64,000 nt of DNA from the IMG/VR virus record IMGVR_UViG_3300032007_000033, positions 1-64,000 of that record; one strand, written 5' to 3'. This DNA comes from an uncultured virus (IMG/VR IMGVR_UViG_3300032007_000033) (lineage: Duplodnaviria > Heunggongvirae > Uroviricota > Caudoviricetes). Positions within the stretch are counted from its first letter, which is position 1. The number at the start of each line of letters is the position of its first letter. The notes beneath the pieces are model-generated. The model worked only from the letters and a program-made list of their open reading frames with translations. It was not told where the DNA came from and searched no databases. The translations under genes and the position numbers were made by a program. Positions 27,901 through 44,805 of the stretch are shown in pieces.

Positions 27901-28613
27901 TTTAAGTCGTCCTCCTCTCTCGATTTTTTATAATCCTCTATTATTTTATCCTTCAATCCTTCCAAACCCTTGGGCATTCGTCCGCAACACTTGATTTCCT
28001 TGCAGTAACCGATGTCCTCGCACTTGGGGACGAAGTAGTTGTCGCAAATCCACTTCCATTCCTCGGAGTAGGCGGAAAGTTTATCCTTGATTTCCTTGGA
28101 CAATTCCCTAATCTCATTGTAAGCCCTAGAGCAAAGCCTTTCGTTCATGAAGTGAATCAATGCTCGCAAGTTTATCTTCCACACGATTTTCGTGTCCATT
28201 CCCAACGGAAGGATGTTGGCTATGTCCTCTTTCGGCATTCCCAATTCCGCCAATTTTCCGTATGAGTCGGAAATCTCGTCCATCACCGTCTCGTAAATTT
28301 CTAGTTGCTTGGAGGATACTCCTTTGGGAGTATAGTAGTTGAAGTTCTCATAGTCAACATACCTCGTGGACGATTGTAAATAAGTGGTTCCCACTATATG
28401 ACGACCCAATTCTCTGATACATCTTGCGGATTTACAATCTATAATAAATACCACATCCACATATTCCATTATTCGCCCGTGTCCGCTATTGATGCATGAC
28501 TTGGCTCGTTTTATATTTTTATCAACATCGTCAATATTAGAATTCCAACAAACCCCAGCGATTTTTCCAATATAATTCAATGGATTTTTTTGGCAAGACT
28601 CAATCAATATCAT
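27897..28613 (-). CDS. thyX: FAD-dependent thymidylate synthase
   Basis: SGHGRIMEY, RH...QSSTRYV, KEDIANILP, NLRALIHF..ERLCSRA..EIR. Confidence 0.93.
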   Translation of the reverse strand: MILIESCQKNPLNYIGKIAGVCWNSNIDDVDKNIKRAKSCINSGHGRIMEYVDVVFIIDCKSARCIRELGRHIVGTTYLQSSTRYVDYENFNYYTPKGVSSKQLEIYETVMDEISDSYGKLAELGMPKEDIANILPLGMDTKIVWKINLRALIHFMNERLCSRAYNEIRELSKEIKDKLSAYSEEWKWICDNYFVPKCEDIGYCKEIKCCGRMPKGLEGLKDKIIEDYKKSREEDDLK

Positions 28614-29833
28614 TTATCTCTCCTTTCAGATACATAATCATTCAAATCATAAGCGTTTTGTTCAAAATGTTCAAACGCATCAAATAAATCATCTTTCTTT
28701 AAAATTTTGACATTATTGACAATCATACAGTTTTGTTTTTCAATCAACAATTCATTTTTATTATAAGGATTGATTAATTCACCTTTTTCGTTAAAAAAAT
28801 GGTCGCCTTTTATTTCAACCAATTCTCCATTTATCAAAAAATCAGGTTCGTATGAGTGTACTTTTCCATCTATTTCATAAGTTATGTTGGTTTTGGGATG
28901 AAAAATAAAATCAATTTTATTATCTTTCAGATACATATAATAAATTAATTCCCACGAACTATCAAATTTATTATTATCATATTCGAATTTATATTGATTC
29001 CATTGCTTTCCGTATTTTTCGATACATGTTTTTCTTATTTTATCTCTAACCCATTCTAATTTATTAATATTATCTACTCCATATTTCGCTAATGAAGATT
29101 CCGCTTTATGTTGTTTTACAACATCGCTTGAATTTGGACTTTCGACTCCGTATTTCAATAGGCTAGTTTGTTTGGTTTTTTCTTTATAATCTTTCGTTCC
29201 TAAATATTCTTCACTTCCATATTTAATTAGATTTGTTTGTTTTTTCTTTTTTTTAAATTCCTCAACTTGGCTCACATTTTCAATATTGTTGCCATAGCGA
29301 CTTTTTAATGTATTTTTAGTGTGCTCTTTCATAATTTCAGATTGAGTTGTATATTCAACTCCGTATTTTTTAAGATTTGTTTCTTTGGTTTTTTTCATTT
29401 TTAATTCATTGAAATTTTCCAAAGAACCATATTTTTCAATAATGGTTTTATTTCTTTTTTCGGCGGAAATTTTATTAAAATTTTCCAAAGAGCCAAAACG
29501 CTCGATTATTTTATTTTTGCGATTTTTTATATTTTTTTCAGTATTCATTGTACACGAAACCCCATATTTTGTTAAATTTGTTTCTTTTGCTTTATCGGCA
29601 TTTACATAATTTTCATTTCCATATTTTAATAATTTAGTATGTTTTACTGAACAAACCATACATCGAGAAATATTATTTCTATTTTTTATATTTTTTGCAA
29701 ATTTTGAAAATGGTTTTCCACAAACGCAACAAAGACCTTCAAACATTATGTTTGATGATTTTTTAAACAAAATATCATCGTTTACAATATCATTTATATT
29801 CGATGAAGTTATTGTGATAATATTATATTCCAT
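28610..29833 (-). CDS. Free-standing putative homing endonuclease (K.TNL.KYG repeats plus PD-(D/E)XK domain)
   Basis: Repeated TNLxKYG units; FDSSWE...YEPDF...VEIKG; very AT-rich. Confidence 0.8.
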   Translation of the reverse strand: MEYNIITITSSNINDIVNDDILFKKSSNIMFEGLCCVCGKPFSKFAKNIKNRNNISRCMVCSVKHTKLLKYGNENYVNADKAKETNLTKYGVSCTMNTEKNIKNRKNKIIERFGSLENFNKISAEKRNKTIIEKYGSLENFNELKMKKTKETNLKKYGVEYTTQSEIMKEHTKNTLKSRYGNNIENVSQVEEFKKKKKQTNLIKYGSEEYLGTKDYKEKTKQTSLLKYGVESPNSSDVVKQHKAESSLAKYGVDNINKLEWVRDKIRKTCIEKYGKQWNQYKFEYDNNKFDSSWELIYYMYLKDNKIDFIFHPKTNITYEIDGKVHSYEPDFLINGELVEIKGDHFFNEKGELINPYNKNELLIEKQNCMIVNNVKILKKDDLFDAFEHFEQNAYDLNDYVSERRDK

Positions 29834-29845
29834 TCAATCCTCCAA

Positions 29846-30986
29846 TCAAAAGTCGTCGTCGAACATCGAAGGCTCGACATAATCGACCCCGATTTTCCAA
29901 CCGTGAAGTTTGGCCATGTTGAGCAAGGTTTCCTTCTTGTAACCTGTCGCCTTGGACAAGGACGGAATTTTGTTGCTTTCATACAACCTTCGCTCGTCCA
30001 AAATTTCTTGCGGTATGTCGCTAGCCCTAACAGTCACCTCGCATATGTCGAACAAGGTTTCCCTATACTTTTTCAACTCATTGAACTCAATCTTGAAGTC
30101 CAACTCGTTGAGCACTTCGTCTCTCTTGGCTCTCTTCTTGCGATAAACCTTCCATTCCTCGAAGTCCTCCGTCAAGAACTCCACATCCGCGTCCTCTATG
30201 GCGGATAAAAGAATTGCAGAAGCCAACTGCTTTATGTTTTGCAAACTCGCCGACTCTAAGGCGATGTCCATGTATGGCGTTATTTGTTTCGTTCGCTCGC
30301 TCTTTTTCATTCGCCAATCTCCGCGTGGTACTTCACGCTCTCGTCCGTCAATTCGACCAACTTTTTGAAATCCTTTTCGTCCAACTCGTTCTTGGCCTCG
30401 ATGTAGAACCGCCAAAGCCAATGCTCCTTTTCCCTTTGGTTGCTCTCCTTTTCGTTTCTGTCGTACATGTTGACTTTCGCCAAAGAGCGTTTTAGACAAG
30501 CCATGGCGGTCTTGTACTTGGCCATTTGCTTGAAGAAGTTCTTGGAGTTCAACTCCTCTTCGTTCTCCGCTTGGTAGCGCATTCTCTTGGCGGACACCTC
30601 TTCGATGTTGCATTGCAAGTCTTGCTTCAACTGTTTCAGTTGCTCGCGCGTCATTTCAGACAAGTCCTCGTCGGAATAGACGATTTCCTCCCTCCCAATC
30701 CTAACTTTAACCATTTTGTCGTTTCCTCCAAATTTTTTATATTTCATCCGAGCCTCTTGTCGGTTCAAGCGTTCGGATTGTTTCTCATGCAATCGCTGAT
30801 TCTTTTGACTTCCACAATCTTGTTGTTGGGAAACTTCTTCCTAGCCTCTAGTTCCGCGCAATATCCGTCGGCAGTCACACAGACATATTCGGAAGGCTTT
30901 CCGCTTTCGTCAACCATTTCGACTTTATACTTATACATTGGGGTATTTCCTCCAATAATCGGAAGGCACATTGTTAGCCCAAACAT
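29846..30986 (-). other. Hypothetical ORFs 29846..30310, 30307..30792 and 30765..30986
   Basis: Coupled ORFs downstream of the topo IB C-fragment. Confidence 0.6.
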
Positions 30987-43293: not shown

Positions 43294-43321
43294 TTTCCCA
43301 ATCGGATTAACTATTTGTATT

Positions 43322-44656
43322 ATGAAAGAAACATTGATAGAAATATTTAAGAAAAAAGGCATTCTCAATAAAAATAACGGACGAAAATTCTGTTATAAAA
43401 ATTATTGGGACGACGAATGCGAATCGTTGTGGGGAAAATATTCTTCTAATTATAGAAGTAATGATGAAGCGTGGTATTGCTTGTCTAAAAATGTAGAACC
43501 TCCGAAATGTCCATTGTGTGATAAGTTATGTAGATTTGTGGGCGGAAAGCGAGGTTATAAAATAACTTGCGAAACTTGTGACCCAAATAAAGTTCCGTCT
43601 AAATTAAAACATTTTTCCAAGACTATTTCTAAAAGAACAGAAGAAGAAAAAAGGAAAATCTTTGAAAAAAGAAAACAAACTAATTTAGAATTATACGGAG
43701 ATGAAAATTTTACATTGTATGGCTCTAAATCTTTCAAAGAAAACATGTTGAATAAATATGGCAATGAAAATTACTCTAATCACGAAAAAGCAAAAGAAAC
43801 TAGTATCGAACGATATGGTGTGGATTGCAATTTTAAAAGGGAAGGATTTCAACAATATTCTGCGAATAAAAAACGAGAACTATACGGCAACGCCTCTAAT
43901 TATGAAAAAACCATGAAAACCAACATGAAGAGGTATGGTGTTCCCCACATAGGACAATGTAGAGAAATAATAAATAAAAATAATCTCGAAAAACAAGAAA
44001 AATATGATAAATTCGAAATTGAAAACGATTGCACATCGAGGAGTAAATTAAAAAAATTATACGGTGTAGGATGGTGGTCTCTCGGTATAGAATATCTTGA
44101 ATACATGGGGCATTATTTTGTACCTAATGAATTTTTAAAAGATATAATAGAATATTCTAGCGAAGGTACGCACACCAACAGTTATATTTCTAAACGAGAA
44201 GTTGAGCTTAGAAATTACATTAAAGAAATTTATGATGGTGAAATTCTCAACAATGTGACCAATGTCGTAAAAAATAACAATCATAGATATTTTGAATTAG
44301 ATTTGTATTTGCCTCGATTAAAAATTGCATTTGATTTTGACGGAATGTATTGGCATTCCATAAAATTTAAAGATAAATATTATCATCAAAGAAAAAGTGT
44401 ATGTTGTTTGGAGCAAGGGGTTAGATTGGCTCATATACAAGAAGATGAATGGGTGAATAATCGTGAGGTTTTGTGCGATAAAATAAGACAATTAATTTTT
44501 GAAAACAAAACATTTAATGATGGTTGTTTCCCACCTTCGTTGAACGATTATAATTTTTCTGAACCTAGAAAGATTATGATTGATAAATTTGGTAAAAAAA
44601 CACTTGACGAAAGCCAGTGTAATTTAATATATTATGATACAGGAGTTATTTTATGA
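43322..44656 (+). CDS. Putative homing endonuclease (T...YG repeats plus Vsr/PD-(D/E)XK-like domain) splitting nrdD
   Basis: CPLC...CETC; TNLELYG/TSIERYG repeats; ELDLYLP.LKIAFDFDGMYWH. Confidence 0.82.
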   Translation: MKETLIEIFKKKGILNKNNGRKFCYKNYWDDECESLWGKYSSNYRSNDEAWYCLSKNVEPPKCPLCDKLCRFVGGKRGYKITCETCDPNKVPSKLKHFSKTISKRTEEEKRKIFEKRKQTNLELYGDENFTLYGSKSFKENMLNKYGNENYSNHEKAKETSIERYGVDCNFKREGFQQYSANKKRELYGNASNYEKTMKTNMKRYGVPHIGQCREIINKNNLEKQEKYDKFEIENDCTSRSKLKKLYGVGWWSLGIEYLEYMGHYFVPNEFLKDIIEYSSEGTHTNSYISKREVELRNYIKEIYDGEILNNVTNVVKNNNHRYFELDLYLPRLKIAFDFDGMYWHSIKFKDKYYHQRKSVCCLEQGVRLAHIQEDEWVNNREVLCDKIRQLIFENKTFNDGCFPPSLNDYNFSEPRKIMIDKFGKKTLDESQCNLIYYDTGVIL

Positions 44657-44805
44657 GAGATGTGATTGATGTGTCCATTGATGACGAAAAGTACAAAAAG
44701 CATAAAAAAGCGTATCAATACGCCATGGATATGCTACAAAAAGAAGTTCACCAATCGATAGAAGGATTGTTGCACAATTTAAATTCATTGCAAAGCAGGT
44801 CGGGT
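44653..44805 (+). CDS. nrdD: nrdD second piece, exon 1 (missed by the ORF track)
   Basis: AGGAG at 44641, ATG at 44653: MRDVIDVSIDDEKYKKHKKAYQYAMDMLQKEVHQSIEGLLHNLNSLQSRSG. Confidence 0.85.

Follow-up and report, generated by a model that had tools for sequence, protein, structure and literature searches.

Free-standing homing endonuclease genes (HEGs) that split phage genes have been described for mobE and nrdA of phage Aeh1, mobA and topoisomerase II of T4, and seg and gp43 (PMC2988022). In Jug (jumbo gut) phages (360 to 402 kb; Sci Adv 2026), a four-piece nrdD was reported for which metatranscriptomes recorded splicing at introns but none between fragments of 230 aa and 91 aa (PMC12880540). 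Accounts of collaborative homing describe a free-standing HEG acting with an intron that lacks an open reading frame (ORF), and trans homing is exemplified by T4 mobE with the nrdB intron (PMC2988022, PMC2790892). The basic event, in which a HEG cuts a phage enzyme gene into translated pieces, is already known. Here, we examined a 64,000-nucleotide stretch of an uncultured Caudoviricetes virus (hereafter the window), comprising the first 64 kb of the 135,409-bp virus record IMGVR_UViG_3300032007_000033 (CheckV completeness 64%), where three AT-rich HEGs adjoin or interrupt thyX, a type IB topoisomerase (topo IB) gene, and the class III ribonucleotide reductase gene nrdD. With a probability of roughly 70%, we read these as three free-standing HEGs that homed into enzyme genes, two of which would be split without splicing at the break, the nrdD HEG being partnered with a group I intron.

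The sequencing runs containing window DNA were labelled animal-gut metagenomes, and the source is a gut-metagenome phage of about 200 kb. Related sequence is available in two records: G002 (160 kb), essentially identical to the window and with the arrangement unchanged, and G001 (218 kb, 92% complete), whose topo IB is 77% identical to that of the window. The features concerned, with nrdD divided into pieces a, b, and c, are as follows.

27897 to 28613, minus strand: thyX, whole and unsplit, 238 aa (Pfam Thy1, E = 3.7e-40; G001 homolog 240 aa)
28610 to 29833, minus strand: HEG 1, free-standing, DUF7487 family, 407 aa, 25% GC (Pfam DUF7487, E = 7.8e-29; phrog_3339)
30931 to 31653, minus strand: topo IB-C, 240 aa (Pfam Topoisom_I 140-225 and Topo_C_assoc; human topo I chain 375-557)
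31595 to 32539, minus strand: HEG 2, free-standing, GIY-YIG, 314 aa, 23% GC, splitting topo IB (Pfam GIY-YIG; phrog_314/7168/5123)
31659 to 31701, minus strand: restart signals for topo IB-C inside the 3' end of HEG 2 (promoter-like hexamers and a Shine-Dalgarno sequence, SD)
32532 to 33716, minus strand: topo IB-N, 394 aa (Pfam Topoisom_I_N and Topoisom_I 2-143; human topo I chain 32-378)
42487 to 43293, plus strand: nrdD-a, ATP-cone and first part of NrdD, 268 aa (Pfam ATP-cone, NRDD 2-136; 8p23 residues 9-244)
43322 to 44656, plus strand: HEG 3, free-standing, DUF7487 family, 444 aa, 30% GC, in the nrdD a/b loop (Pfam; PHROGs)
44653 to 44805, plus strand: nrdD-b mini-exon, 51 codons (8p23 residues 277-311)
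44806 to 45066, plus strand: ORF-less group I intron, 261 nt, 153 nt after the restart ATG (splice junction, fold, covariation)
45067 to 46911, plus strand: nrdD-c exon with the catalytic Cys and glycyl-radical domain (Pfam NRDD 258-562, Gly_radical; 8p23 from residue 312)
45376 to 45867, plus strand: mini-intein candidate, 164 aa, residues 104-267 of nrdD-c (insertion at the catalytic TMG/CRT site, slashes here and below marking insertion points or junctions; A104...SHN267/C268)

As in nrdA-a/mobE/nrdA-b of Aeh1 (PMC2988022, PMC3653736), a free-standing HEG lies in a ribonucleotide reductase gene that is contiguous in relatives, no intron or intein occurs at the break, and the two pieces would be translated separately, which for this locus is predicted from sequence. 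Unlike Aeh1 as described in these sources, the reductase belongs to class III (NrdD) and not class Ia, its HEG is DUF7487/PD-(D/E)xK-like where that of Aeh1 is HNH, the gene also houses an ORF-less group I intron together with a mini-intein candidate, and the pieces are known from genes alone. T4 gene 60/mobA/gene 39 and seg43(25)/gene 43 of Aeromonas phage 25 likewise represent a HEG-split topoisomerase or polymerase gene, seg being GIY-YIG-type (PMC2988022), whereas the topoisomerase broken here is a eukaryotic-type topo IB and the break puts active-site residues on two chains. Collaborative and trans homing systems, as outlined in the sources above, share with nrdD a free-standing HEG within recombination distance of a HEG-less intron in a conserved coding stretch; here, however, the HEG is inside the gene and splits it rather than lying beside it, and two nrdD sites show the pairing, with introns of at least two families at three or more insertion points. 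Group I introns and stand-alone endonuclease genes also break up nrdD in Jug phages, although Jug phages are a different group and the account given of the unspliced gap does not link it to a particular HEG family or an adjacent intron (PMC12880540). The initial annotation of the window had proposed a general strategy; the HEG-split genes are real, but generality was overstated and such genes were already in the literature, within what PMC2988022 and PMC12880540 report. The class III reductase and the eukaryotic-type topo IB with its active site over two chains are new members of the HEG-split genes, and the repeated pairing of one endonuclease lineage with ORF-less introns at shifting positions in a short conserved stretch is likewise new. 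This pairing lends comparative support to collaborative homing, a model resting on very few cases, and gives a testable target sequence.

All three HEGs carry an SD near the 3' end and overlap the ATG of thyX (28613), topo IB-C (31653), or nrdD-b (44653), confirming every junction initially reported. Two enzymes, topo IB and nrdD, are cut, as had been stated and as judged from intact homologs, while thyX is whole (238 versus 240 aa). Judged by comparison with G001, all three HEGs are insertions, since that genome has an intact topo IB, a HEG-free thyX, and contiguous nrdD a-b-c. The survey of related genomes for HEG-split core genes, suggested at the outset, recovered these empty sites in G001 and orthologous a/b-loop HEGs in two further nrdD loci, L060 and L087. 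The G+C content of the three HEG ORFs was 23 to 30%, compared with 37 to 48% in the flanks, and Pfam and PHROGs identified them as GIY-YIG, DUF7487, and phrog_3339/314 'homing endonuclease'. The GIY-YIG domain of HEG 2 scored 31.4 bits (Pfam cut-off 22.6), with GIY...YIG visible in the sequence, and the DUF7487 repeat region exceeded its cut-off of 27 bits at 101.6 and 39.7 bits. In tblastn, the nrdD HEG matched the F-Lim endonucleases of Dickeya phage LIMEstone1 and relatives (25.5% identity to F-LimVIII); a homology search for viral loci with this HEG returned its twin contig only, and a PDB sequence search with it gave nothing meaningful. The HEG in nrdD of G001 matched REase_MTES_1575 at 43.1 bits (cut-off 38.2). 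For the thyX HEG, Pfam gave no nuclease domain and a PD...E.K-like motif was recognized by eye only. The two DUF7487/F-Lim-type HEGs of the window are predicted to carry a PD-(D/E)xK-like C-terminal domain, and the initial claim of different nuclease families, now GIY-YIG and DUF7487/PD-(D/E)xK-like, was borne out.

At thyX, the HEG 1 insertion point is exactly the gene start, and the native SD (TTGGAGGA) now serves the HEG. The original SD and start position (TTGGAGGATTGA-ATG) are occupied by HEG 1, whose own 3' end carries a replacement SD and ATGA overlap and reads ...gaaAGGAGagataaATGa, with AGGAG at 28624-28620, the thyX ATG at 28613-28611, and the HEG stop TGA overlapping that ATG; the terminal sequence through the thyX start at 28613 is ...AGGAGagataaATGa. 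The empty site in G001 is a 12-nt spacer with TGGAGA between the preceding gene and the thyX ATG. Identity in the 5' half of thyX was 47 to 60% versus 73 to 87%, a lower value near the HEG that is suggestive only. Upstream of HEG 1, the 255-aa ORF at 29846-30613 is over-extended, its 157-aa G001 homolog placing the true start at an internal Met, and comparison with G001 identified the overlapping 161-aa ORF at 30307-30792 as the real upstream gene.

The split gene at 30931-33716 encodes a eukaryotic-type topo IB with Topoisom_I_N, Topoisom_I, and Topo_C_assoc domains, and its N piece matched the large subunit of the kinetoplastid two-subunit topo IB (PDB 2b9s). Aligned to human topo I, RAGNE and LGKDS were found on the N piece and FRTY, NHKK, and NYSNP on the C piece. 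The catalytic core is broken between the active-site Lys and second Arg, with the cut some 10 residues ahead of the FRTY arginine, leaving the small C piece with the second Arg, His, and Tyr of what we take to be the catalytic pentad; the active site would be shared between two chains. Kinetoplastid topo IB is formed of two subunits and human topo I shows fragment complementation. A type IB enzyme working as two polypeptides is what the window's gene would also yield, but in those enzymes only the Tyr-bearing C-terminal domain is separated, whereas here the cut is earlier and HEG-caused.

Within HEG 2, the SD AAGGAGGG lies at 31666-31659 with the ATG at 31653 six bases on, and the HEG frame continues 59 nt past the topo IB-C start, to 31595. 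Residues 356-359 of topo IB-N read NNVC in place of GSIC, and all HEG-less alleles have GSIC or NGIC at this position. NNVC and the tail of about 32 to 35 residues are cassette-derived, as are residues 1-40 (the head) of topo IB-C, which is native from residue 41 (KTFRTY...); homology to G001, where topo IB is a single intact HEG-free ORF of 568 aa, begins at KTFRT. An intact allele in the protein database (P0010) shares 199 of 206 positions with the window N piece, and beginning at residue 41 it matches the C piece with 100% identity (83% of that piece). Sequence of this type is NEFLGSICKDIPHLSNK, and the P0010 junction peptide, NEFLGSICKDIPHLSNKTFRTY, is not encoded in the window's record. 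A second split N piece (P0004, 395 aa, also from the protein database) has a body 79.7% identical to that of the window, and its junction and tail (NNVC plus 35 residues) equal the window's at 36 of 39 positions. This shared edge on bodies that differ so much indicates that an exon edge travels with the cassette, which has passed from one diverged allele to another. An independent run (X3) yielded a contig, its flanks about 97% identical, that has HEGs at thyX and at nrdD, the latter with its intron; across topo IB it carries 1675 unrelated letters compared with 2763 in the window, approximately the length of the uninterrupted gene, and HEG 2 is probably absent from it.

The topo IB N piece had 43 relatives in the metagenome protein set, a few of them named as archaeal proteins from metagenome-assembled genomes (Aenigmatarchaeota, Bathyarchaeota). 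tblastn of this piece against 50,697 GenBank phage records returned no match at E<=1e-5, and the topo IB region had no blastn match in the phage collection. The possibility that tail and head at the break, in which no topo IB similarity was detected, are diverged exon duplicates was rejected (985 and 993 of 1000 shuffles reached the score), and a drop in identity at the end of topo IB-N was ruled out as HEG-related, the intact allele P0010 sharing it.

In nrdD, HEG 3 sits at the a/b break, which is a variable surface loop. Its 3' end carries AGGAG at 44641-44645 and an ATGA overlap at 44653-44656 with the 51-codon nrdD-b. Homology of this mini-exon to the intact loop of G001 begins with its very first residues (2 of 1000 shuffles reached the score), and the tail of nrdD-a showed no significant sign of a flanking-exon duplication (154 of 1000). 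The G001 nrdD has a, b, and c contiguous in one ORF of 775 aa, with neither the a/b HEG nor the 261-nt intron. The a/b-loop HEG protein is conserved end to end over three lineages (window, L060, and L087; 38 to 46% identity). Among the best 120 nrdD-a-like proteins, 29 were 259 to 288 aa long, 28 of which by eye stop in the a/b loop, 42 were 300 to 339 aa (many stopping just after HNL or SRSGN), and 42 were 400 to 469 aa (many stopping after STMG), a distribution that suggests the three nrdD interruption sites are widespread.

The 261-nt intron following nrdD-b was delimited by the exon junction SRSG/NQLPF, continuous with 8p23 residues 311/312. At its 5' edge, U44805 pairs with G (U.G) in the predicted P1, and the last intron base is G45066. 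The fold was more stable than expected (z = -4.16). A P1-P9.1 structure with a P3/P7 pseudoknot was proposed from the window sequence, which favors the structure in one control, and tested on an alignment of eight sequences: the model pairs 87.7% of cells compared with 35 to 40% for slid partners, compensatory changes on both sides occurred in 41 of 64 pairs, and none of 500 shuffles matched any of five measures. Both-side changes affected all seven P3 pairs, and P7 showed a 4:4 AU/GC split. Similar intron sequence was found in 74 GenBank phage records, including the joined terL coding sequence (CDS) of Lactobacillus phage JCL1032, and in a crAss-like phage a relative separates two 'DNA helicase' CDS. 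The JCL1032 terL intron reportedly self-splices in experiments. Hosts of this intron family are terL, tape-measure, helicase, and capsid genes of Lactobacillus, Staphylococcus, Arcanobacterium, Oenococcus, and crAss-like phages, and several records annotate the intron as a small 'hypothetical protein' CDS or present two separate CDS. JCL1032 is listed among BLASTN matches to group I intron RNAs (PMC2504315). In more distant phage nrdD, the family also occurs after RRVTGY by the glycyl-radical motif, with a LAGLIDADG ORF in L020 (8110-9320) and ORF-less in L022, L023, and L026-L029.

The mini-intein candidate at the catalytic Cys interrupts the 8p23 alignment, which leaps from query position 100 to 289. 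G001 shares the insertion, which L021 and L024 lack. It falls below the Pfam cut-offs (PT-HINT, 22.8 versus 27.7; Intein_splicing, 16.6 versus 35.8), and its first residue is Ala, not Cys or Ser; Ala-1 inteins exist. Judged from the gene as it stands, nrdD needs RNA splicing and probably protein splicing, though neither at the HEG break. The initial annotation had described the arrangement as non-splicing, which held for the HEG breaks, where no intron or intein was found, and failed for nrdD as a whole, given its group I intron (44806-45066) and mini-intein candidate (45376-45867). Elsewhere, the catalytic TMG/CRT site carries insertions of 229 to 359 nt (L027-L029, L078, L087) or of 0.8 to 1.3 kb with GIY-YIG or HNH ORFs. 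L027 also has a more distant nrdD with a full-size intein-like insertion (C...GN/C) at HDLDSY..MQN/C in piece a (6555-7408), in addition to its 229-nt insert at the catalytic Cys site.

The relation of HEG and intron was surveyed in 80 viral loci fetched with the nrdD-a fragment alignment, onto each of which the three nrdD pieces of the window were mapped; 78 loci span both the a/b and the b/c junction, and 34 of 36 ORFs of the insertions were domain-searched. Insertions in the a/b loop were present in 3 of 78 loci (L040, the window's twin; L060; L087), and all three were DUF7487 ORFs of 438 to 457 aa and full-length orthologs. Every one of these loci also had an ORF-less insertion of 261 to 350 nt at the b/c junction, while a small b/c insertion occurred in none of the 75 loci without an a/b HEG. 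Nine loci had b/c insertions of 0.95 to 1.2 kb, containing a GIY-YIG/NUMOD ORF (6), NUMOD only (1), or LAGLIDADG (2). Three intron insertion points (CT/T, CAGT/CA, and GGT/AAT) lie within 16 nt of the L-Q-S-R-S-G coding stretch. nhmmer placed the L087 intron in the family of the window's intron, together with those of L048 and L113, which carry a LAGLIDADG ORF. The L060 intron is of a different family; it is structured (z = -3.56) and has a GACUA...UAGUC motif pair as in the Rfam consensus, with no Rfam match. The restart in L060 reads AAGGAGAGaaaaaATGA.

A second nrdD site showed the same pairing. In G001, a DUF7487 ORF of 309 aa, with REase_MTES_1575 above cut-off, is inserted after ...AEFKKEW and ends AGGAGGatattaaATGgATGa (AGGAGG, ATGgATGa restart), followed by a 33-codon exon ending YYTP, for which there is a weak hint of duplication (46 of 1000 shuffles). 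A 292-nt insert then precedes AEGL..., with an Rfam Intron_gpI match at E=9.9e-6 and 29.6 bits against a gathering score of 50. U/G intron ends are found in G001, L060, and L087 as in the window. In seven loci, insertions at YYTP/AEGL are about 1 kb, with HNH_3 in all four ORFs searched. Other HEG families at the b/c and YYTP/AEGL sites sit inside introns. DUF7487 insertions in nrdD were paired with an ORF-less intron in four of four cases, with 99 to 153 nt from restart ATG to intron. This co-occurrence fits collaborative or trans homing, for which F-CphI and the psbA intron are said to be an example. We see as an even bet the stronger proposal that in nrdD the DUF7487 HEG and ORF-less group I intron make up one obligate mobile element of two parts, in which the HEG would be the motor, cutting the LQSRSG- (or YYTP/AEGL-) coding stretch, and the intron a co-converted immunity patch, leaving the host enzyme permanently in two pieces. 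If true, three orthologous HEGs with three intron points in 16 nt would be snapshots of a proposed pathway leading to the emergence of mobile introns.

In the course of events that we favor, three free-standing HEGs would have invaded nucleotide-metabolism and replication genes by homing at the DNA level. Each cassette would give the upstream frame a new end, and an SD and ATG, possibly with a promoter, in its own last codons would restart the downstream sequence; cassettes would be retained only at places that allow re-translation of what lies downstream in the host gene. For thyX, only the start signals would be displaced. For topo IB and NrdD, two polypeptides each would reassemble noncovalently, as for Aeh1 NrdA, with no RNA or protein splicing expected at the HEG breaks. 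The nrdD HEG would be half of a two-part mobile unit whose partner, the ORF-less group I intron, interrupts the conserved sequence most probably cut by the HEG and would protect the carrier genome; the HEG would in turn mobilize the intron by co-conversion (collaborative or trans homing). The insertions, empty sites, restart signals, intron structure, and HEG-intron co-occurrence underlying this proposal are observed; that the pieces are translated, assemble, and are active, where the HEG cleaves, and that the intron confers immunity are its predicted components.

Several observations weigh against this reading. Stop/start overlap with an internal SD is ordinary in this genome: in a crude ORF set, 4-nt overlaps were found in 13 of 135 adjacent same-strand pairs, 11 of them with a non-HEG upstream gene, and AGGAG or GGAGG lay at -18 to -4 in 59 of 209 ORFs. 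The apparent cassette design is partly gene packing and survivorship. The restart in L087 lies 12 nt past the HEG stop, with no SD and no overlap, and the REase_MTES_1575 match to the nuclease domain of HEG 3 was weak (E=0.021). The survey loci are not phylogenetically independent, and the HEG-intron association rests on four lineages. Rfam recognized no group I intron in the window at the gathering threshold or, at E<=10, in 27500-47500 and in the 311-nt intron region. Intron_gpI at E<=1, however, also missed all seven homologous phage loci, including the annotated joined JCL1032 terL, and the Rfam negative is uninformative because known homologous introns are missed too. Rfam scans of L005-L007 yielded nothing relevant.

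That HEG and intron are neighbors in nrdD by coincidence, both kinds of element being attracted separately to conserved nrdD sequence and the HEG target being its own a/b-loop insertion site, we consider unlikely. The gene is a general hot spot, with insertions at at least five sites bearing GIY-YIG, HNH, and LAGLIDADG ORFs across the 80 loci, and the thyX DUF7487 HEG has no intron nearby, a further point against our reading that shows intron pairing is not a property of the whole family. Coincidence would nevertheless have to produce an ORF-less intron 99 to 153 nt after the restart ATG in all three a/b-HEG loci and at the second G001 site, its absence from the b/c junction of all 75 HEG-less loci, and three insertion points with at least two intron families in one 16-nt stretch. 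Distinctly less probable is that the split genes are inactivated remnants, with loss of topo IB and NrdD tolerated by the phage and the pieces decaying. Both are accessory genes, and such decay has been suggested for the HEG- and intein-ridden nrdA of Campylobacter phages (PMC3653736). All topo IB and nrdD pieces are nevertheless open, free of frameshifts and stops, with active-site motifs kept and a strong SD before each restart; split topo IB occurs in two lineages 79.7% identical, and the a/b-loop HEG orthologs flank open nrdD pieces in three lineages, with nrdG intact.

We give very little credence to the view that each HEG is inside an unrecognized self-splicing intron or between split-intein halves (a 'fractured gene'), with full length restored. 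The blindness of Intron_gpI to at least one intron family here does make the negative scan weak, GIY-YIG HEGs occur inside introns at other nrdD sites, and a fractured-gene arrangement is cited in PMC3653736. The space available speaks otherwise. Non-HEG cassette sequence in topo IB is at most about 160 nt (tail, head, and 59-nt overlap), too short for a group I core; in nrdD, the spacer from the nrdD-a stop to the HEG ATG is 28 nt in the window and 4 nt in L060 and the 3' end is an ATGA overlap, so that a ribozyme would not fit. The HEG proteins align over their full length, downstream pieces begin with SD and ATG, and nhmmer with the intron profile found only the 261-nt intron in the 135-kb genome. 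No HINT match, split-intein signature, or HN/Cys junction was found in the tails of 32 to 40 residues, those of topo IB included. For annotation, such nrdD and topo IB fragments are easily called truncated or pseudogenes, and the Rfam group I model entirely misses this intron family.

Promoter-like hexamers, close to a sigma-70 type of consensus, precede two of the restarts: TTGACG-17-TATAAT (31701-31673) within the 3' end of HEG 2 upstream of the topo IB-C SD, and TTGACG-18-TATATT (44604-44633) within that of HEG 3 upstream of the nrdD-b SD. The former matches at 11 of 12 positions, second best among 84 sites in 19.9 kb, and is a consensus match only. These hexamers were given no weight, the DNA being AT-rich and 84 sites comparing with 77.9 expected. 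In three of four HEG ORFs, the HEG's own ATG has no recognizable SD before it (stretches 43294-43321, 32540-32575, and 38453-38490), while the restarted host pieces have strong SDs, a pattern consistent with weak HEG translation.

Two further features of the window adjoin or resemble those above.

37271 to 38452, minus strand: fourth HEG-like ORF, 393 aa, 25.5% GC, intergenic and splitting nothing (phrog_4538/9084/559)
46896 to 47411, plus strand: nrdG activase, intact (Pfam Fer4_12, E = 9.3e-36)

The fourth HEG-like ORF is located between genes of 706 aa and 682 aa (tail-fibre-like). In G001, an unrelated HNH ORF occupies the same intergenic slot; with unrelated HEGs in one place, the slot is a hot spot. 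The span delimited in the initial annotation ended at 44805, which is the 5' splice site of the group I intron, and the fourth ORF inside it was not mentioned there. At least eight HEG-like ORFs are encoded in the whole record. An AT-rich block with an RtcB ligase and a metallophosphatase was observed in G000 (63050-66890 and 120442-122228), which also has two TnpB (IS605 OrfB) genes, an IS200-type Y1 transposase, several DNA methylases, and a serine resolvase.

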